From NCBI GenBank assembly GCA_027064945.1, contig JAMOPB010000418.1, positions 1 through 35,301 of the forward strand: DNA of 35,301 nt, in the 5' to 3' direction. The position numbers and the translations under genes were made by a program. Shown piece after piece: positions 15,041 to 30,327 of this stretch. The notes below the pieces were generated by a model that was not told the DNA's origin, ran no database searches, and saw only the letters and a program-made list of their open reading frames with translations. The stretch comes from Candidatus Cloacimonadota bacterium. Lineage in GTDB: Bacteria > Cloacimonadota > Cloacimonadia > Cloacimonadales > TCS61. How positions within the stretch are numbered: position 1 is the first letter of the stretch; every line of letters starts with the position of its first letter.

Positions 15041-15058
15041 ATATTAAGGAAGATGAAG

Positions 15059-15976
15059 ATGAAAAAAATTATAATATTGATGGGTGGTTTTTCAGAAGAA
15101 AGAGAAGTTTCTTTAGTTACCGGTGAGCAAATTGCAAAAGAGCTAGAAAACATTTATCAGATTAAGAAAATTGATCCGAAAGAGTATAGCTCTTATCATC
15201 TTATGATGGAAGAAATTATAGAATTTGATCCAATGTTGGTTTTTATAGCTCTGCACGGAGCGGAAGGAGAAGATGGCAGAATTCAAGCATATTTATCATT
15301 GCATAATATAAAATTCACCGGTTCAGGATACAGAGCAAGTGCGCTTGCAATGGATAAAATAATCAGTTCTAAAATTGCCAAAAGTGTGGATGTGCCTGTA
15401 GCTAATAAAATTATATATGAAAAAAGTCACACGATAGATAAAGAAATAGCTTGCCAATTAGGTTTCCCTTTGGTAATCAAGCCAAATGAATCAGGTTCAT
15501 CTTTTGGAATATCAATTATTCACCATGAAAATGATATTGAAAATGCTATTGAGTTTGCTTTCAAATATAGTGATAAAATTATATGTGAACAATTTATTCC
15601 CGGAAGAGAATTAACTGTTACAATCATAGATAATGTTGCGTATCCTGTGGTAGAAGTAAAACCAAAATCCGGTTGGTATGATTATCAAAACAAATACACT
15701 AAAGGAAATACGATTTATGAAGTCCCTGCCAAACTTAGTGTAACGGAGGAGAAGGTTATTAAAGAATATGCTTTGAAAATATATAAAGCATTTGGATGCG
15801 AAATTTATTCAAGAGTAGATTTTCGTTATAATGGAGAAGAATTTTATTTTTTAGAAGTTAACACATTGCCGGGAATGACAGCCCTTAGCCTTACGCCTAT
15901 GGCTGCGAAAGAAGCAGGAATTTCTTTTGGTGATTTATTGAAAAAAATCATCGATTTGTCTATACTTAGATGCTAA
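15059..15976 (+). CDS. ddl: D-alanine--D-alanine ligase
   Basis: GGFSEEREVSL, ALHGAEGEDG, KPNESGSSFG, GRELTV, omega loop WYDYQNKY, SRVDF, LEVNTLPGMT. ATG 15059 fits the AGGA spacing better than 15053. Confidence 0.95.
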   Translation: MKKIIILMGGFSEEREVSLVTGEQIAKELENIYQIKKIDPKEYSSYHLMMEEIIEFDPMLVFIALHGAEGEDGRIQAYLSLHNIKFTGSGYRASALAMDKIISSKIAKSVDVPVANKIIYEKSHTIDKEIACQLGFPLVIKPNESGSSFGISIIHHENDIENAIEFAFKYSDKIICEQFIPGRELTVTIIDNVAYPVVEVKPKSGWYDYQNKYTKGNTIYEVPAKLSVTEEKVIKEYALKIYKAFGCEIYSRVDFRYNGEEFYFLEVNTLPGMTALSLTPMAAKEAGISFGDLLKKIIDLSILRC

Positions 15977-15989
15977 ACTAGGAGGATTT

Positions 15990-17084
15990 ATGAAGAATTT
16001 GTTTTTTATTTTTTTTGTGATAATGTCAGCATTTTGTTTTGCTGATATTGGAGATATTAGTGTTGTGCCGACATCAGGGCTTGTCTATAATAATATTGGT
16101 GCTAGTGCTTTTAATCTTGATGATCCGAATCAACAGCCGATTTTTTTTACAAGTATGATTTTCAATAATACTGATTCAGAAATTGAAAACTATAAATTGG
16201 AAATTTCGATGTATTGGCGTGATCAAATTGTAATTGAATCAATTACCGTAAGACCTAAACCGGGTTCTAGCTGGCAAGTTTTAGAACCAAATTCAAACCA
16301 GGTTTTAACTAATAGAGATATTATTGTAAACAATTCAAATGATTTTGTTGCGGAAACCGATTTGGATTTTGAAGAAATCAGAAGTAATGTTTCCGAATTT
16401 GATGATATTTTCCGAAAAACAGGCTTGATGCCGGATGGGGAGTATCGTTGGGATGTTCAATTTTTCGATGAAAATAATAATCCTCTTTCAAATCTCGTAT
16501 CATTTTCTTATATAATTGAAACTCCAATTGATATAATGCTTACAACTCCCGGCAGTCCGATTGGAAATGAAGTTTATTTTGCTTTAAGTAATCGTCCAAC
16601 TTTTGTTTGGTATTCAAATTTGAATAATTATACTCTAACAGTTTATGAAGTGGATGATGTTGTGGAAAATCCGGAAGATATTCTCACTAACAATCCAATT
16701 ATTGAAATTTCCGATATAGAAGCTAATTCTCTTACCTTTCCGGAGGAGTATGCAAGTTTGGAAGGTGGGAAAACTTATGCTTGGCGAGTGCAAGCAGAAA
16801 CGTTTGCGCCAGCAGGATTTTCTTCAGAGACCAAATATAGTAAATTTTATCTATTCAAAATAATGACAGATTCTGAAGAAGTAGCTGCTCAACAGCAATT
16901 AATTAATTTTATCCAACAATTAAATATTCCCCAAGCACAAGAATTAATAGATCTTTTCAATGCCGGCTATGCTCTGGATGAGATCAATTTTCAGGGGAGC
17001 AGTGTTTCCGCTGAAGATTTAATGGATATTCTTAATCAAATTCAACAAGGAACTCTTCGCGTAAAAAGCGTTAGAGTGGACTAA
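15990..17084 (+). CDS. Secreted hypothetical protein with Ig/FN3-like beta-sandwich domains
   Basis: AGGAGG ribosome-binding site, signal peptide ending AFCFA, PDGEYRWDVQF, RPTFVWY...YTLTVYE...LEGGKTYAWRVQA, Gln-rich helical C-terminus. Confidence 0.75.
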   Translation: MKNLFFIFFVIMSAFCFADIGDISVVPTSGLVYNNIGASAFNLDDPNQQPIFFTSMIFNNTDSEIENYKLEISMYWRDQIVIESITVRPKPGSSWQVLEPNSNQVLTNRDIIVNNSNDFVAETDLDFEEIRSNVSEFDDIFRKTGLMPDGEYRWDVQFFDENNNPLSNLVSFSYIIETPIDIMLTTPGSPIGNEVYFALSNRPTFVWYSNLNNYTLTVYEVDDVVENPEDILTNNPIIEISDIEANSLTFPEEYASLEGGKTYAWRVQAETFAPAGFSSETKYSKFYLFKIMTDSEEVAAQQQLINFIQQLNIPQAQELIDLFNAGYALDEINFQGSSVSAEDLMDILNQIQQGTLRVKSVRVD

Positions 17085-17093
17085 GGGGGCAAT

Positions 17094-17750
17094 ATGAAAA
17101 AGATTTTATTATCCTTAATTGTATTACTACTATTTTGCATAAATTTGAGTGCGTCAGTTGCAATTACTTTAAAAGCGGTTGGAGATGTTTCTTTAATTAG
17201 AGAAGAAAACGTTTCTAAAGCGGAAAATGGGACTGAATTAGAAAATAATGATCAACTTGAGACAAAGAAAAATTCCTATGCAGCAGTGAAATTTGTAGAT
17301 GGAAGCTCTGTAATAAAAGTTTTCCCAAATTCTGTTTTAACTATTAATGCAGAAGAGGGAGAAGATAAGAAATTAAATAAAAAAACTAATCTGAAAGTTG
17401 GGGAATTGTGGGCAAAAGTAACAAAAAAAACAGGTGGATTTGTAATTGATACGCCTACTACAGTAGTTTCCGTAAAAGGAACAAGCTTTAATGTTGATGT
17501 TGATGAAAATGGAATTACTGTTGTTAATACTTTTGAAGGCAGTGTAGAAATGAAAAATAAAAAAGATGGGAAATCTGCAATTATTGGTGCCGGAAAACAC
17601 GGAAGATCTAATGGTAGTGGTGATATTGAAGTATTAGATGGGAATACAACTCAAGAAGAGAAAAATGTCGATCCGGAAGTAAAAATCTTAGAAATCGAAT
17701 TAGAAAATTCCGAAGGTAATTCAAAAATAATAAAAATAGAGTTTGAGTAG
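17094..17750 (+). CDS. Secreted FecR-domain protein
   Basis: Signal peptide, VKFVDGSSVIKVFPNS, GELWAKV, FVIDTPTTVVSVKGTSFNV, VNTFEGSVEM. Confidence 0.88.
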   Translation: MKKILLSLIVLLLFCINLSASVAITLKAVGDVSLIREENVSKAENGTELENNDQLETKKNSYAAVKFVDGSSVIKVFPNSVLTINAEEGEDKKLNKKTNLKVGELWAKVTKKTGGFVIDTPTTVVSVKGTSFNVDVDENGITVVNTFEGSVEMKNKKDGKSAIIGAGKHGRSNGSGDIEVLDGNTTQEEKNVDPEVKILEIELENSEGNSKIIKIEFE

Positions 17751-17758
17751 GAGGTATT

Positions 17759-20110
17759 ATGAAAACTTTAATTATGTCATTTTTACTCTGCTCAATTACT
17801 TTTGCTTTTGCAGTAAATCTTTCCGTCGAATTACCGGAAGTTTATGAAAATAACTCCGAACTGATTTTACGAGTGGATGAAGGATTTAATGATATAGAAA
17901 AAGCAACTTTATATTTCAGAGCAGATGATGAAGAAAGCTATATTTCATTGGATATGCAAAAAGGATTAGTTTCAGAACCAATATACACTGTTTCAATTCC
18001 GTCAAATTACTCATTTGATTCTGCAGTTGAATTGTATTTTGAAGCATTAACAGAAAATGGACAGAAAATTACATATCCACAAATAAATCCTCAATTAAAT
18101 CCGCTTAGATTAATAGTGGCAAATTCTGATACAATCTCTGAGAGTATTATTTTGCTTTCACCGGATGTGAATTTTCCAATCAACGCTGAAGAATTGATTA
18201 TTGCATTTTCCTATTTTTCTATTCAAAACGATATTAAAGCTAATTCAATAAAAATATTTTTTGATGGGAAAGATTATTCCTCTAAAGCAAAAATAACAAA
18301 AAATATGGCTATATTAAAGCTTCCAACTCCTAAAGCGGGAAAGCATACATTTAAAATGAAAGCAGAATCTGTAATGGGAAATAAGATTAGTTCAAAAGAT
18401 TTTTCCTTTGATCAAAACAAATCTGCAAAAATCATTCCTTTCAATATCGACGGAAGTTTATCTGCTTACGGAAAATACGAATCAAATTCAGAAACAGATA
18501 ATTATAATGATGCAAATATGCGTTTGATTCTAAATGTAAGGAAAAACTGGTTCAGGTTGAAATCAAAAACTTTTCTCACAAGCTTGGAAGATTCTAAGAA
18601 ACAACCTTTAAATAGGTTTAGTTTGGATATTGATGTACCTCATTTTGGAGTTAAAATTGGTGATTTCTCTCCAGATTTCGGTTCATTTGCAATAAATTCT
18701 GTAAATGTAAGAGGTGTTTTTTCTGAATTAAATTTTAAACTTTTCCGATTACAAGCACTGTATGGAGATAGCAAAAGAGCTATTCCCGGTAAACTTTATA
18801 CCACAAATAATTCCGAGACGGTGAATGGTGATTTATATGTAAATAATGATATAGCTTTTGCCAGGGAAACTACCGGAATTAAGATGGAGTTTGGTCACGA
18901 AAGATATTTTAATTATGGCTTGAGTTTTGTTAAAAATAAAGATAGAGTTTCCTCTTTGGATGAGGAGCAATATTTTGCACCGGATTCTACACTTTTGGTT
19001 CGTCCGAAAGATAATATTGTCATTGCAACAGATACAAGATTTGCTTTCAAAGACCAACGCATTGTTTTTGGTGCTGAAGCTGCAATGAGCTTGTATAATT
19101 CCAATATAATAGATGGTGCAATTTCTCAAGATTCTCTGGAAACTTTGGTAGGACAAGAAATTCCTATTGATCCTGAAGATTTGGAAGGTTTCTTTGTGGT
19201 AAATTCGAATATTGAACCTTTTGAACCGGGATTATCCAATCTATCCTACAAAGCATATATGAGAGTTTTCCTCTTAAGAAATTTGTTTAATATTAGTTAT
19301 TCATATGTTGGAAGTAGTTTTAATAATCTTTCAGTAGGGTATTTGGCAAAGGATTTGGCTACAATTTCAATTAGTGATAATATCGCATTATTCAACAATC
19401 GTTTTCTTTTGAATATTTCTTATAATATGAACAACAATAATCTATCGGATGATAAAGAATTTACTACAAACAACAATACTTTTTATGCTCAAGTTTATGT
19501 TCGCCCCACAAATGATTCTTTTTTTAATTTTAGTTATAATATCAATAATACCGATAATAGTTCTGATACATTTGAGACCAGAACATCGGTTTATTCAATA
19601 GGAATGGGCTATAATGTGAAACAGATAGATTATGCACCAACAAAGTTTAGTGTAAATTTCTCAAATTCTGTAAACGAAGATTTATTGGGGAATACTTACG
19701 ATTTTCAGAAAAATGTGATTACAATTTCTGCCAATAGTAAATATCGAGATTTTCCGCTAAAATCTAAAATTGGTTATTCTGTAGCATTGGATGAAAACAA
19801 GCGAGTTTCTTTTGATGATTCATATTGTGAAATTGAAGAGTTGGATGATAGTAGCTATCATTCTGTTTTTGTTAATACAAGTTATTTGTTTAATGAGAAA
19901 ATTGAACCGATTGCAAAATTTAGATTCTCAGTTTCATCAGGAGATTTTGAATATTCTTCTCAAAATGTAAATATTGGCACAAAATATAAATTTGATAGGA
20001 AAACGGATTTATATGCCGGATTAGGCTTTGCGAATTATAATTATCCTAATTTGGATGAGAATGATAATAGCGAATTAGAGCTTTCAATTAACTTAAAAAG
20101 AAGATTCTAA
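17759..20110 (+). CDS. Large outer-membrane protein: N-terminal Ig-like domains plus a C-terminal beta-barrel
   Basis: GGAGG ribosome-binding site, signal peptide ending AFA, Ig-like segments (TLYFRA...YTVSIP...LYFEA; IFFDGK...GKHTFKMKA), alternating aromatic amphipathic strands after about residue 230, terminal strand LSINLKRRF ending in Phe. Confidence 0.75.
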   Translation: MKTLIMSFLLCSITFAFAVNLSVELPEVYENNSELILRVDEGFNDIEKATLYFRADDEESYISLDMQKGLVSEPIYTVSIPSNYSFDSAVELYFEALTENGQKITYPQINPQLNPLRLIVANSDTISESIILLSPDVNFPINAEELIIAFSYFSIQNDIKANSIKIFFDGKDYSSKAKITKNMAILKLPTPKAGKHTFKMKAESVMGNKISSKDFSFDQNKSAKIIPFNIDGSLSAYGKYESNSETDNYNDANMRLILNVRKNWFRLKSKTFLTSLEDSKKQPLNRFSLDIDVPHFGVKIGDFSPDFGSFAINSVNVRGVFSELNFKLFRLQALYGDSKRAIPGKLYTTNNSETVNGDLYVNNDIAFARETTGIKMEFGHERYFNYGLSFVKNKDRVSSLDEEQYFAPDSTLLVRPKDNIVIATDTRFAFKDQRIVFGAEAAMSLYNSNIIDGAISQDSLETLVGQEIPIDPEDLEGFFVVNSNIEPFEPGLSNLSYKAYMRVFLLRNLFNISYSYVGSSFNNLSVGYLAKDLATISISDNIALFNNRFLLNISYNMNNNNLSDDKEFTTNNNTFYAQVYVRPTNDSFFNFSYNINNTDNSSDTFETRTSVYSIGMGYNVKQIDYAPTKFSVNFSNSVNEDLLGNTYDFQKNVITISANSKYRDFPLKSKIGYSVALDENKRVSFDDSYCEIEELDDSSYHSVFVNTSYLFNEKIEPIAKFRFSVSSGDFEYSSQNVNIGTKYKFDRKTDLYAGLGFANYNYPNLDENDNSELELSINLKRRF

Positions 20111-20128
20111 CCTAAAAAAAACGTACTT

Positions 20129-20160
20129 ATAGGAAGGGCGAAATTTGGTCCTTCCTATTT
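20129..20160 (+). terminator. Stem-loop between the barrel gene and the cyclase gene (weak terminator or stabiliser)
   Basis: ATAGGAAGGGC-GAAATTTG-GTCCTTCCTAT followed by only a short T run. Confidence 0.6.
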
Positions 20161-20178
20161 AGTATTAGGAAAAAATAA

Positions 20179-22041
20179 ATGAAAAGAATTAAATACTTTA
20201 TACCTGCAATCATTTTTGTTATTTTACAGTTGATTTTTGTTAGTAATTATTGGACAGGTCTGGAATTAAAAGCCAAAGATTTGCTTTTTCAGATTCGGGG
20301 AGAAATAAAAACTTCAGGCAATGTTGTAATTGTAAATATTGGCGATGACACTTTTAATTCACTGGGAATTCAATGGCCTTTTCCAAGGGAATATCATGCA
20401 CGAGTAATAGATAATCTTGAGCGAGCAGGTGCTGCAAAAATTATTTTTGATATAGAATTTGTTGAAGAATCAAATGCAAAATCAGATTCTATCTTAGCAT
20501 CCACAATAGCCAAATATGATAATATCACTTTAGCCGGAAAAGTAATAACTCAGATTACGGGAAAAACAAAAAAAACTCAAGTTTTAGCACCAATATCTAG
20601 TTTGCTTAGAGCAAATGCAAACTGGGGAACGGTAAACATCTCAGCTGATAACGATGGTTTTGTTAGGGAATATGAATTATTTCAAAAGATTGGGAAAACA
20701 AATAAATATTCTTTAGGAGCAATTGCAGTAGCTAGTTTCAAAAATAGAGATAACTACTTGGAAGATATTATTAATGGAGAAAAATATCTACAAATTTCCG
20801 ATTATCTAATTCCTAAAAAAAGAAACAAGACAGCGCTGATAAATTATTACGGACCAGCTAGAACATTTCCTTACTACGAATATGCGGATGTTTTAGATTC
20901 AGAGGATTTTGATATACCTTTTTTAGATTTAGATTCTTTTAATGATTTAATGAATAAAGGAGTTTTTAAAGATAAAATCGTTATAGTTGGTGTCTCTGCC
21001 GTCGAATTTCACGATTCACATCCCACTCCTTTCTTTTCAGAAAATAGAGCACTAACTCCCGGAGTAGAAATTCATGCTACTTTTATAGATAACGTTTTAA
21101 TGAGAGAACACTTATCGGAATTTCCTTATATCAAGTTAATATTTATTTTTCTATTTCTAACTTTTATTCTCTTTTTGATTAACATAAATATCAGACCAAC
21201 AATCTCAATTATTTATAATTCATTATTATTTTTTTCTTACTTTGGCGTTGTGTTTTATTTATTTAATACGGAGAATATGTTATTGCCGGTTTTGGAAATT
21301 CCCGCAACAATTATAGTAGTGTATGTTATAGGATTAGTTTTCCAATATATTAAATCTACTAAAGAGAAATTTTTTATAAAAAAAGCTTTCGGTAGATATA
21401 TTGCACCATCTTTGGTGGAAGAATTGATAAAAGATCCCAAAAAATTAGAATATGGTGGAAGCCTTAAAAATATTTCTGTATTATATTCTGATATTGTATC
21501 TTTCACATCCTATACCGAAACGCATTCACCTAAAGAAACAGTAGAATTGTTGCGAGAATATCTTACTGCAATGGTAGAAGTTGTTAAAGATAATAAAGGA
21601 ACATTAGATAAATTTGTGGGTGATGAAATTGTAGCCCTTTTCGGAGCTCCGGTAGAATTGGAAGATCATGCATATTGGGCGGCAAAAACTGCTTTGGAAA
21701 TGCGTTATAAGATGCAAGAATTACAAGAAAAATGGAAAAAAAATAATCGAGATCCATTCGAAATAGGAATTGGCATAAACTCCGGAGAAGTAACTGTGGG
21801 AAACCTTGGCTCTGAACAAATCTTTGATTACACTGCTATCGGAGATAATATGAATGCCGGAGCTAGAATTGAAGCTTTAACAAGAAATTATAAAACGGAG
21901 AATAATATTTTAATTAGCGAAAGTACCAAAATTCTGATTGAAGATAAATTTGAAGTGGAATATGTAGATGATGCAATGGTAAAAGGTAAGAGTAAGCCGA
22001 TAAAAGTTTATCAATTGCTTGCCATGAAAACACCAAACTAA
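20179..22041 (+). CDS. CHASE2-domain membrane adenylate cyclase (class III)
   Basis: CHASE2 motifs (VVIVNIGD, WPFPR, IFDIEF, DNDGFVR, INYYG, KDKIVIVG, PGVEIHA), three TM helices, cyclase motifs SDIVSFT, DKFVGD, GIGINSG, YTAIGDNMNAGARIE, VKGK. The Lys/Thr specificity pair indicates ATP as substrate. Confidence 0.95.
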   Translation: MKRIKYFIPAIIFVILQLIFVSNYWTGLELKAKDLLFQIRGEIKTSGNVVIVNIGDDTFNSLGIQWPFPREYHARVIDNLERAGAAKIIFDIEFVEESNAKSDSILASTIAKYDNITLAGKVITQITGKTKKTQVLAPISSLLRANANWGTVNISADNDGFVREYELFQKIGKTNKYSLGAIAVASFKNRDNYLEDIINGEKYLQISDYLIPKKRNKTALINYYGPARTFPYYEYADVLDSEDFDIPFLDLDSFNDLMNKGVFKDKIVIVGVSAVEFHDSHPTPFFSENRALTPGVEIHATFIDNVLMREHLSEFPYIKLIFIFLFLTFILFLININIRPTISIIYNSLLFFSYFGVVFYLFNTENMLLPVLEIPATIIVVYVIGLVFQYIKSTKEKFFIKKAFGRYIAPSLVEELIKDPKKLEYGGSLKNISVLYSDIVSFTSYTETHSPKETVELLREYLTAMVEVVKDNKGTLDKFVGDEIVALFGAPVELEDHAYWAAKTALEMRYKMQELQEKWKKNNRDPFEIGIGINSGEVTVGNLGSEQIFDYTAIGDNMNAGARIEALTRNYKTENNILISESTKILIEDKFEVEYVDDAMVKGKSKPIKVYQLLAMKTPN

Positions 22042-22072
22042 GAAAAGGTATTTTAAAAAAAATGGATTAGTG

Positions 22073-22588
22073 ATGAAAAAAATTGTTTTAATTATTTTGT
22101 TTTTAACAAGCATATTTCTATGGGGTCAAGATAGATTTGTTTTGGCCGGAGGATATGGCACGGCGGATGTAGATTCTTTTGAGCACGAAATATATACTTT
22201 TCGCTTAGCAGGTAAAAATCAATCTACCTTTATTGGAATTGATTATGATTTACTTATATATGAAGATGATTTTATTGAATCAGAATATTCGGAAAAATTA
22301 ACAAACAGCAACATTCATGAAATCAGTTTCTTATTTGGAAAATCAATGCCATTTGGCAGATATTCTAGTGTGAATTTTAATGGTGGGATATCAGTTATTA
22401 GGAAACTTGAGAAATTTGAACAATCAAATTTACCGGAAAAAAAAAGAAAAGATTTTGGATTTCCAATTGATGCAACAATAGATATTGGTATTTTAAAAAA
22501 CTTGGGAGTAAGTTTCAGAGCTAAGAAAAGTTACAATGATATTGCACCATATTTTGGATATTCTGCAATGTTGCAATTCATTTTTTAA
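22073..22588 (+). CDS. Small outer-membrane beta-barrel protein (hypothetical)
   Basis: Signal peptide, about 8 amphipathic strands, C-terminal YSAMLQFIF. GTG 22070 is an alternative start. Confidence 0.65.
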   Translation: MKKIVLIILFLTSIFLWGQDRFVLAGGYGTADVDSFEHEIYTFRLAGKNQSTFIGIDYDLLIYEDDFIESEYSEKLTNSNIHEISFLFGKSMPFGRYSSVNFNGGISVIRKLEKFEQSNLPEKKRKDFGFPIDATIDIGILKNLGVSFRAKKSYNDIAPYFGYSAMLQFIF

Positions 22589-29397: not shown

Positions 29398-30327
29398 TTA
29401 TATTAATCTACATGCATCCTTAGCTATCATTTTTGCCTCTTTAATCAGATCCATCACGTTATTGGTTTCATCATTTGCCTGAGAAACTCCCCAACCTCTA
29501 ATGATATTGTTTTTTTGGATTATATCGATAAAACTACCTTCAATCCGTTTGATAGTTAGAAGTGCATTTTTCTTATCGGTTTCAGGCAGTGCAATCAAAA
29601 AAATATTATTCTGATATCTGCCAATTATATCAGTAGTTCTAAGGTTATCTTTAATATAATCTCCAATAGATTCAATTATTTTACTTACCTTATTAACTCC
29701 ACGCTTATTGACTAAAGATTTATAGTTATCGATATATAGAACACAAAGACTGATATCTCTATTATAACGTTTCATAAGCCTTAATGATGTGTTCGCTTTA
29801 TGGGTAAAAGGTTGGAATTTATGAACGTGATTTATTTGATAAAATCCTTCATGCTGTGCAATATCATCTTCTAAGTTATGAATTCTGACGGTGATACTGC
29901 CAATGCTTCCATAAAATTTTATTAGTTCTTGATGCTCTTCTGAAAAGAATCCTTCTTTTTTATCTAAAAACATAAATCCGAAAAGCTCTGATTTATAAAA
30001 AATGGGGGTAATTATAAGATGAGAAAAATCGTGTTCAAATTTGTAAAATCCATATTCATCTATTTCAATTTGTTCAAATTTCATCATCTCTTGAACGAGA
30101 GGATCACCGGCAGTAAAAATAGTGTCTTTAGCAAAATGATGACTGATATGCCTACTAATTTTCAATCTGTATAATTCTGTATGAGGAACTTTTAGAAAAA
30201 TACCCAAACTTTGATATTTTATCTCCTTTTCTAAATCTCTTAAAATTCTAGACAAACTCTTTTCTAATGGCAGATCAGCTTGAATGTCCTTTTGCAATTC
30301 CACAAAATGTTTTATCGAAAAATCCAT
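29398..30327 (-). CDS. GAF plus degenerate GGDEF protein, putative c-di-GMP receptor
   Basis: GAF-like segment IITPIFYKSELFGFMFLD..EGFFSEE. GGDEF-fold segment IDNYK...LRTTDIIGRYQNNIFLIALPETD, with an RxxD I-site and QNNIF in place of GGDEF. Confidence 0.78.
   Translation of the reverse strand: MDFSIKHFVELQKDIQADLPLEKSLSRILRDLEKEIKYQSLGIFLKVPHTELYRLKISRHISHHFAKDTIFTAGDPLVQEMMKFEQIEIDEYGFYKFEHDFSHLIITPIFYKSELFGFMFLDKKEGFFSEEHQELIKFYGSIGSITVRIHNLEDDIAQHEGFYQINHVHKFQPFTHKANTSLRLMKRYNRDISLCVLYIDNYKSLVNKRGVNKVSKIIESIGDYIKDNLRTTDIIGRYQNNIFLIALPETDKKNALLTIKRIEGSFIDIIQKNNIIRGWGVSQANDETNNVMDLIKEAKMIAKDACRLI

Follow-up and report, generated by a model that had tools for sequence, protein, structure and literature searches.

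Four-gene cassette of Candidatus Cloacimonadota encoding three predicted exported envelope proteins and a putative CHASE2 adenylate cyclase

We analysed a stretch of 35,301 nucleotides (nt) from Candidatus Cloacimonadota bacterium (assembly GCA_027064945.1, contig JAMOPB010000418.1); the whole stretch is called the window in the following. At positions 15990-22588 the window carries five co-oriented open reading frames (ORFs) on the plus strand, which are separated by gaps of 9, 8, 68 and 28 or 31 nt. An original prediction, made from the sequence alone, had interpreted these genes as a five-component trans-envelope system that converts a surface cue into cyclic AMP (cAMP). Here, the first four genes are described as a conserved cassette that may couple the outer membrane to a cyclase of the inner membrane. 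The five ORFs are listed below, with protein lengths in amino acids (aa).

15990..17084, plus strand: secreted 364-aa protein (A364), predicted to consist of two FN3/Ig-like beta-sandwiches and a small alpha/beta domain
17094..17750, plus strand: secreted 218-aa FecR-domain protein (Pfam FecR, E 9.6e-15)
17759..20110, plus strand: 783-aa outer-membrane protein with signal peptide, two Ig-like beta-sandwiches, a predicted 26-strand barrel and a C-terminal Phe
20179..22041, plus strand: 620-aa CHASE2 class III adenylate cyclase, as assigned from Pfam matches to CHASE2 (E 3.5e-50, 171.4 bits) and Guanylate_cyc (E 1.3e-25)
22070..22588, plus strand: 172-aa secreted protein with a C-terminal Phe; GTG start, with an ATG at 22073

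The common orientation and the tight spacing, given earlier as 9, 8, 68 and about 30 nt, are borne out by these coordinates. Pfam matches were obtained for two of the five proteins only, namely FecR in the 218-aa protein and CHASE2 together with Guanylate_cyc in the 620-aa protein. Each of the four non-cyclase proteins has a single N-terminal hydrophobic segment. This agrees with the four signal-peptide proteins of the original prediction, the signal peptides having been judged by eye and without a dedicated predictor. Its statement that an extracytoplasmic function (ECF) sigma factor, TonB and a plug domain are missing also holds: none was found by Pfam among the 33 window ORFs scanned, where sigma-54 was the only sigma factor.

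Conservation of the genes was analyzed in 20 related loci, which derive from 20 genomes that most likely belong to Cloacimonadota. In 19 of these loci the genes for A364, the FecR-domain protein, the barrel and the cyclase follow one another in this order on the same strand; in the twentieth the cyclase lies on another contig. The median gaps within the cassette are 9, 8.5 and 20.5 nt in these relatives, with a barrel–cyclase gap of up to 972 nt. Among 151 genomes sampled from the phylum, 128 were matched by the barrel profile and 124 by CHASE2. When the two lists were compared by hand, barrel and CHASE2 occurred together in 118 genomes; 10 genomes had just the barrel, 6 had just CHASE2 and 17 had neither. 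Because the genomes are kin, these counts are not independent of one another. The 10 barrel-only genomes include two weak matches and four contig-end fragments.

The arrangement was also observed in a second phylum. The second-tier members of the barrel family carry the names Marinimicrobia/Neomarinimicrobiota, and with one such protein seven loci from Fidelibacterota were fetched. Searches by tblastn detected the cyclase in all seven, the FecR-domain protein in six and an A364-like protein in four, in the same order and at 22-33% identity. Inspection of ORFs revealed a FecR ORF in the seventh locus as well. The gene ddl, which adjoins the cassette in most Cloacimonadota loci, was found in none of the seven, and HU and dnaN are likewise not shared there. 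The barrel itself is present in 46 of 61 sampled Fidelibacterota genomes. In one Fidelibacterota metagenome-assembled genome, the ORF at the A364 position (L044:2425-3741) begins with MmeI N-terminal and helicase-spacer domains, i.e. a restriction-enzyme fragment. This fusion may reflect disruption of the gene or a chimeric assembly.

The fifth gene behaves differently. We considered the possibility that the 172-aa protein is an integral fifth part of the system, as originally predicted. The gene is co-oriented and starts about 30 nt after the cyclase gene, and the same-genus genome G002 carries a copy that is 49% identical and in the same position. In a language-model look-alike search (Atlas), the look-alikes of the protein were clusters of small outer-membrane barrels, with a score of 0.97. 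Based on this search the protein is probably a small outer-membrane beta-barrel, in agreement with the earlier assignment as a small barrel, although it has no Pfam match. The distribution of the gene points the other way. No match was detected in the 20 related loci. Of five genomes searched it was found in G002 alone, and the four in which it was not found include a same-genus genome that is 80% complete. Furthermore, HU, dnaN and recF follow directly after the cyclase in three genera (L015, L017 and L022), without the 172-aa gene. An integral role of this protein is thus very improbable, and we regard the gene as a genus-level accessory outside the conserved four-gene cassette. The proposed co-occurrence across phyla therefore stands for four genes in two phyla and fails for the fifth, and "five-component" has to be replaced by four.

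The 620-aa protein is predicted from hydrophobicity and Pfam to have a first transmembrane (TM) segment at residues 4-22, a periplasmic CHASE2 domain at about 24-320, three TM segments within 320-394 and a cytoplasmic cyclase domain at 429-613. The Guanylate_cyc (PF00211) score of 90.5 bits is well above the cut-off of 21.9; the sensor domain belongs to PF05226. Class III cyclases use two metal-binding Asp residues, a Lys and an Asp that specify the substrate, and an Asn and an Arg that stabilize the transition state; the Lys/Asp pair marks the use of ATP. The catalytic motifs had been described as intact, and indeed all 18 aligned orthologues share D438, K478, D482, D556, N559, R563 and K604. 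The closest solved relative is Cya2 (2w01/6fht), which we take to be a guanylate cyclase. The substrate-specifying positions are K and D in the 620-aa protein and E and G in the aligned chain of Cya2 (2w01). Since the substrate, metal-binding and transition-state residues are all present and invariant, the protein is plausibly an active adenylate cyclase. It accounts for the sole Guanylate_cyc match and the sole CHASE2 match in the source genome (completeness 89%, contamination 7%). Many related genomes encode, away from the cassette, another CHASE2 protein that is longer (about 710-750 aa); none was found in the source genome (G000).

In the 218-aa protein the signal peptide is followed by a FecR beta domain (about residues 25-175), an acidic and variable linker and, at the C terminus, a conserved beta-hairpin motif. 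In the alignment of 20 orthologues this motif reads LEIELENxxGxxKxIxIEFE, and inspection of ORFs showed that the FecR proteins of Fidelibacterota end in the same motif. Neither an anti-sigma domain (Pfam) nor a TM helix beyond the signal peptide (hydrophobicity) was detected in the protein. NCBIfam matches to Leptospira Lsa33/LipL45 were sub-threshold only, and were taken as generic FecR-domain similarity. Two further FecR-domain ORFs were observed in the source genome, one of at least 654 aa (contig C174, L037:1021-2982) and one of 582 aa (contig C271, L038:1015-2763). As the genome has a single CHASE2 match, these two are without a CHASE2 partner.

The structure of the 783-aa protein was modelled with AlphaFold2 from 20 orthologues, with a predicted local distance difference test (pLDDT) of 85.4 and a predicted template-modelling score (pTM) of 0.60. 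In agreement with the "Ig plus barrel" reading, the model has two Ig-like beta-sandwiches (residues 20-120 and 131-219) followed by a barrel (229-783), in which 26 strands were counted. The nearest solved fold of the barrel is MtrB (6r2q), at 10% identity. Conservation is highest in strands 9-14 and in two long loops (448-494 and 518-532). By the usual topology rule for outer-membrane proteins, both loops would either face the outside of the cell or fold into the barrel lumen. The motif of the long loops is retained in the second phylum at an overall identity of 22-24%. Scans of 20 barrel homologues with Pfam gave no match to Plug, TonB_dep_Rec or STN, and the model has no plug-like domain. 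MtrB_PioB had no Pfam match at E<=0.05 in 20 family members. A Slam or type 11 secretion barrel was considered and rejected: no SlipAM or TPR match was found in 20 homologues, the barrel has 26 strands and its N-terminal domains are Ig-like and not TPR. An all-against-all profile search placed the protein in a family of 3108 representatives at E<=1e-3, 608 of them at E<=1e-30.

A364 is predicted to be built from domains at about residues 21-176 and at 183-291, the second being DUF928-like, an alpha/beta domain at 295-352 and a conserved C-terminal strand. Its score against DUF928 (PF06051) is 17.2 bits, below the cut-off of 26, and 2 of 19 orthologues show weak matches. A profile comparison of the first with the second domain gave a probability of 2%, and thus no evidence of sequence repeats. 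In one relative (L060:139-2223, genome G055) the A364 homologue is enlarged to 695 aa with extra DUF928-like repeats and reaches 49.3 bits against DUF928, which fits a modular, fast-changing binding protein. A364 is the fastest-evolving part of the cassette. The fastest evolution was measured for A364 and the Ig-like domains of the barrel (Kimura 1.81 and 1.77), compared with 0.54 for the catalytic domain. Such rates would suit a specificity-determining or exposed part.

We compared the cassette with known systems. On pSymB of Sinorhizobium meliloti, the gene directly upstream of cyaK codes for a protein of 1190 aa in which a FecR domain at the N terminus and TPRs are joined by a weak barrel signal at the C-terminal end. 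We take this gene to be nsrA. Its FecR domain aligns with the 218-aa protein at 26% identity (BLASTP, E 6e-11). The parallel with NsrA and CyaK that had been drawn earlier is therefore sound, and closer than had been assumed; because the FecR domain of the fused protein aligns with the 218-aa protein, "split, Ig-based version" is a fair description of the cassette. According to the available text of PMC13001267, a plant protein is sensed by the S. meliloti CHASE2 cyclases CyaD1, CyaD2 and CyaK via the outer-membrane barrel NsrA.

Both loci encode an exported envelope partner with homologous FecR domains beside a CHASE2 class III cyclase. They differ in several respects. In S. meliloti the FecR-barrel gene directly precedes cyaK, whereas here the barrel gene separates the FecR gene from the cyclase. 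The single fused 1190-aa FecR-TPR-barrel protein is represented here by three separate proteins without TPR. The cassette adds two Ig-like domains on the barrel as well as the FN3/DUF928-like protein, and the barrels are unrelated by profile. Given that the neighbour of cyaK is a fused FecR-TPR-barrel protein, the cassette would be a split, TPR-less and differently built analogue of that relay.

Other CHASE2 sensors have related neighbours. In Campylobacterota, the genes for CHASE2 cyclases lie in clusters with those for an outer-membrane protein that has a FecR domain, for a TPR protein and for a phosphodiesterase; from this neighbourhood the authors suggested one signal pathway (PMC9239204, available text). 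The combination of CHASE2 cyclase and FecR-domain envelope protein is shared with our cassette, while the TPR protein and the phosphodiesterase have no counterpart in it. Conversely, the main text of PMC9239204 reports neither an FN3/DUF928-like protein nor a separate 26-strand barrel for the Campylobacterota cluster. In Burkholderiales, a LysM-FecR protein is paired with a CHASE2 kinase (PMC5192318, available text). Like our cassette, the Burkholderiales/Pseudomonas operon combines a secreted FecR-domain protein with a CHASE2 sensor, whose gene follows directly in that operon. In contrast, as far as that text describes it, signals leave through a histidine kinase and a response regulator, LysM is part of the FecR protein, and neither a barrel nor an FN3 protein is present. 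In Nostoc, a CHASE2 sensor lies beside a DUF928 protein, according to the available text of PMC5587647. With these precedents in S. meliloti, Campylobacterota, Burkholderiales and Nostoc, each part of the cassette has a precedent next to CHASE2.

Two better known barrel systems were compared as well. With MtrB of the Shewanella MtrCAB complex (6r2q) the 26-strand barrel fold is in common, and the resemblance is one of fold only. Unlike MtrB/PioB, the barrel has no multihaem partner, as the CxxCH motif is absent from both neighbouring proteins. The cassette resembles FecA-FecR-FecI in having a FecR-family periplasmic domain beside an outer-membrane barrel. However, the window lacks an ECF sigma factor, the 218-aa protein has neither an anti-sigma part nor a TM part, and a TonB-dependent receptor, plug or signalling domain is missing as well; the output here would be cAMP. 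The literature searched, which excluded most subscription journals, contained no description of the split four-gene cassette and its MtrB-like 26-strand barrel. The earlier statement that the architecture had not been characterised is thus upheld for the split cassette, but not for the pairing of CHASE2 with FecR, which is already published in the available texts of PMC9239204 and PMC5192318.

Based on these observations, the following reading is the best supported, and we give it about even odds. The trio of A364, FecR-domain protein and barrel would form a module of the outer membrane and periplasm; CHASE2 would read the state of this module, most likely via the FecR-domain protein, and the cyclase would convert it to cAMP. 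The 26-strand barrel with its two periplasmic Ig-like domains would work with the FecR-domain and the FN3/DUF928-like exported partners, and together they would form the extracytoplasmic input arm of the inner-membrane CHASE2 adenylate cyclase. A change in the outer membrane or periplasm (ligand, occupancy or integrity of the barrel complex) would be passed to the periplasmic CHASE2 domain. The FecR-domain protein would be the most likely relay in this step. The cytoplasmic class III domain would then alter cAMP synthesis, and cNMP (cyclic nucleotide monophosphate)-binding proteins would read the cAMP. The contacts, the direction of signalling, the cue and the control of the trio over the cyclase are all parts of the scheme that we infer. 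As for the interpretation originally given, the S. meliloti parallel and the co-occurrence of four genes in two phyla speak for it; the inclusion of the fifth gene in the conserved unit does not stand.

Evolutionary rates were compared among the parts of the cassette, with ddl distances controlled. The top partial correlation was that between the barrel and the CHASE2 domain (0.82), which is higher than that between the two halves of either protein. FecR and CHASE2 gave 0.62. This covariation, calculated among kin genomes and without a significance test, weakly supports a coupling.

Several observations weigh against this scheme. In four genomes of one genus (G107, G116, G123 and G133; 90-99% complete), ddl, A364, FecR and barrel are intact ORFs, but the cyclase is missing from the locus and a CHASE2 match from the entire genome. 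In G005 and G016 the locus reads murA-ddl-cyclase-HU and the trio is deleted, and in G062 only ddl and the cyclase are present. In G023 the barrel alone is lost, leaving murA-ddl-A364-FecR-cyclase. In a sister order, the trio is found without an adjoining cyclase in five of five loci, and an orthologous cyclase is encoded elsewhere in each genome; in one of these (G080) it lies 220 kb from the trio. Adjacency is, in addition, largely inherited synteny within kin, and the counts overstate independence. No sequence similarity was detectable between the 783-aa barrel and the 1190-aa protein of S. meliloti (hhalign probability 0.7%). Finally, the source genome has a single weak cNMP-binding match, which at 21.8 bits is under the cut-off. 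The natural variants of the locus are the most informative result of the analysis, and they cut both ways. They count against an obligate system.

In three of the loci, L052 (G023), L053 (G005) and L054 (G016), one or three genes are precisely deleted while murA-ddl and the cyclase remain; they form a natural deletion series suited to comparative tests. The deletion variants identify the trio as a unit of its own. It is a separable module that is able to persist alone, and trio and cyclase usually travel together without strict mutual need. The cyclase is probably an optional reader of the state of the trio, and not the only purpose of the trio. In the main alternative, the trio would be an outer-membrane machine with a function of its own, and the cyclase would have stayed next to it for a long time without being coupled to it directly. 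The trio could then serve in uptake, in export or surface display of the FN3 protein, or as a sheath of the MtrB or usher type. Three findings argue against such independence. The adjacency of the CHASE2 cyclase recurs in the second phylum at the low identity given above, where the other synteny (ddl, HU and dnaN) is not shared. The FecR-CHASE2 pairing recurs independently in Proteobacteria and Campylobacterota. G023 still keeps A364 and FecR with the cyclase after the loss of the barrel. We therefore consider a trio without coupling possible, though rather unlikely.

Receptors for cAMP were searched for in the relatives of the source genome. Proteins with a cNMP-binding domain over the cut-off were present in 40 of 41 relatives, with one to eight in each, including both same-genus genomes. 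Thus, cAMP receptors exist in the lineage. The effector search suggested earlier was hence successful in the relatives, but not in the source genome with its one weak match. That match lies in the C-terminal half of a 285-aa response regulator (contig C79, L034:1381-2238, minus strand; REC, E 1.5e-29) which adjoins a HisKA-bearing membrane protein, and ORFs of 285-302 aa with similar weak cNMP matches were observed in many relatives. The 285-aa REC protein is a candidate cAMP-responsive regulator.

Within the coupled scheme, a specific arrangement can be drawn from the MtrB-like fold. The barrel could be a sheath that holds the FecR or the FN3/DUF928-like protein in the outer membrane, as a rod coupling a surface-exposed variable binding domain to CHASE2. 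Both candidate partners end in a conserved beta-strand motif, which is kept across two phyla. We rate this arrangement as unlikely. If true, a surface event would set cAMP without TonB, an ECF sigma factor or ligand diffusion, and a general input mechanism would be at hand for CHASE2, an orphan sensor family. To our knowledge, the only CHASE2 case studied, that of S. meliloti, points to an outer-membrane partner and not to a small ligand. As of 2016, the sensing target of CHASE2 was unknown (PMC5192318, available text). The cassette would follow the same logic as S. meliloti with different parts; its barrel occurs in most sampled genomes of two uncultivated phyla and belongs to a large unannotated family. 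What feeds CHASE2 is directly testable here, because natural deletion variants exist and the four-gene set is small enough for Escherichia coli cya-. The cassette is thus a compact system in which the question of what CHASE2 domains sense can be put to the test.

The genes around the cassette bear on the nature of the cue. A murA-like gene and ddl precede the cassette on the same strand, with gaps of 12 and 13 nt. Two features belong to this context:

15053..15976, plus strand: ddl (D-Ala-D-Ala ligase; Pfam Dala_Dala_lig_C, E 1.9e-53), 13 nt upstream of the cassette; context and not a component
20129..20158, plus strand: stem-loop of 11 pairs followed by a T-rich tail (terminator-like scan), within the 68-nt gap before the cyclase gene

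Coupling as proposed above might thus serve an internal cue, the module reporting the state of cell-wall or outer-membrane assembly. This would explain the position of the cassette in the murA-ddl operon. In 18 of the 20 related loci ddl adjoins the cassette; it lies upstream in 16 of them, while in 2 it has changed sides and is found downstream of the cyclase gene. The cassette is present in a single copy and is surrounded by core genes, namely lpt genes, rpoN, dnaN and recF, and the FecR partner of the Burkholderiales CHASE2 kinases bears the peptidoglycan-binding LysM (PMC5192318, available text). On the other hand, ddl is found in none of the seven Fidelibacterota loci, and the trio is away from ddl in the loci of the sister order. 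Pfam and NCBIfam scans detected no peptidoglycan-binding domain in any of the five proteins. An internal cue is therefore decidedly unlikely.

The gap that holds the stem-loop is the only long intergenic gap of the cassette, and the barrel–cyclase gap is also the widest in relatives. The stem-loop may be a partial terminator or attenuator. It is weak evidence, since the scan gave 6 such sites in the region compared with 4.0 expected by shuffling. A search of sequencing runs listed 15 DNA data sets and no RNA data set. Downstream of the five ORFs follow the HU gene, dnaN and recF. Upstream, the window carries at 837-10680 genes for LptC-like and LptA-like proteins, an ABC ATPase (LptB-like), sigma-54, a ribosome hibernation factor, HPr kinase and a PEP-utilising enzyme I, and in addition lipoamide-dehydrogenase-like and lipoyl-synthase-like genes. 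With this core cluster of envelope and regulation genes, the cassette lies in a housekeeping region and not in an island. A 309-aa GGDEF-domain protein (E 5.3e-12) is encoded at 29398-30327 on the minus strand, next to a DUF4139 protein, which suggests that cyclic di-GMP signalling is also present in this small genome.

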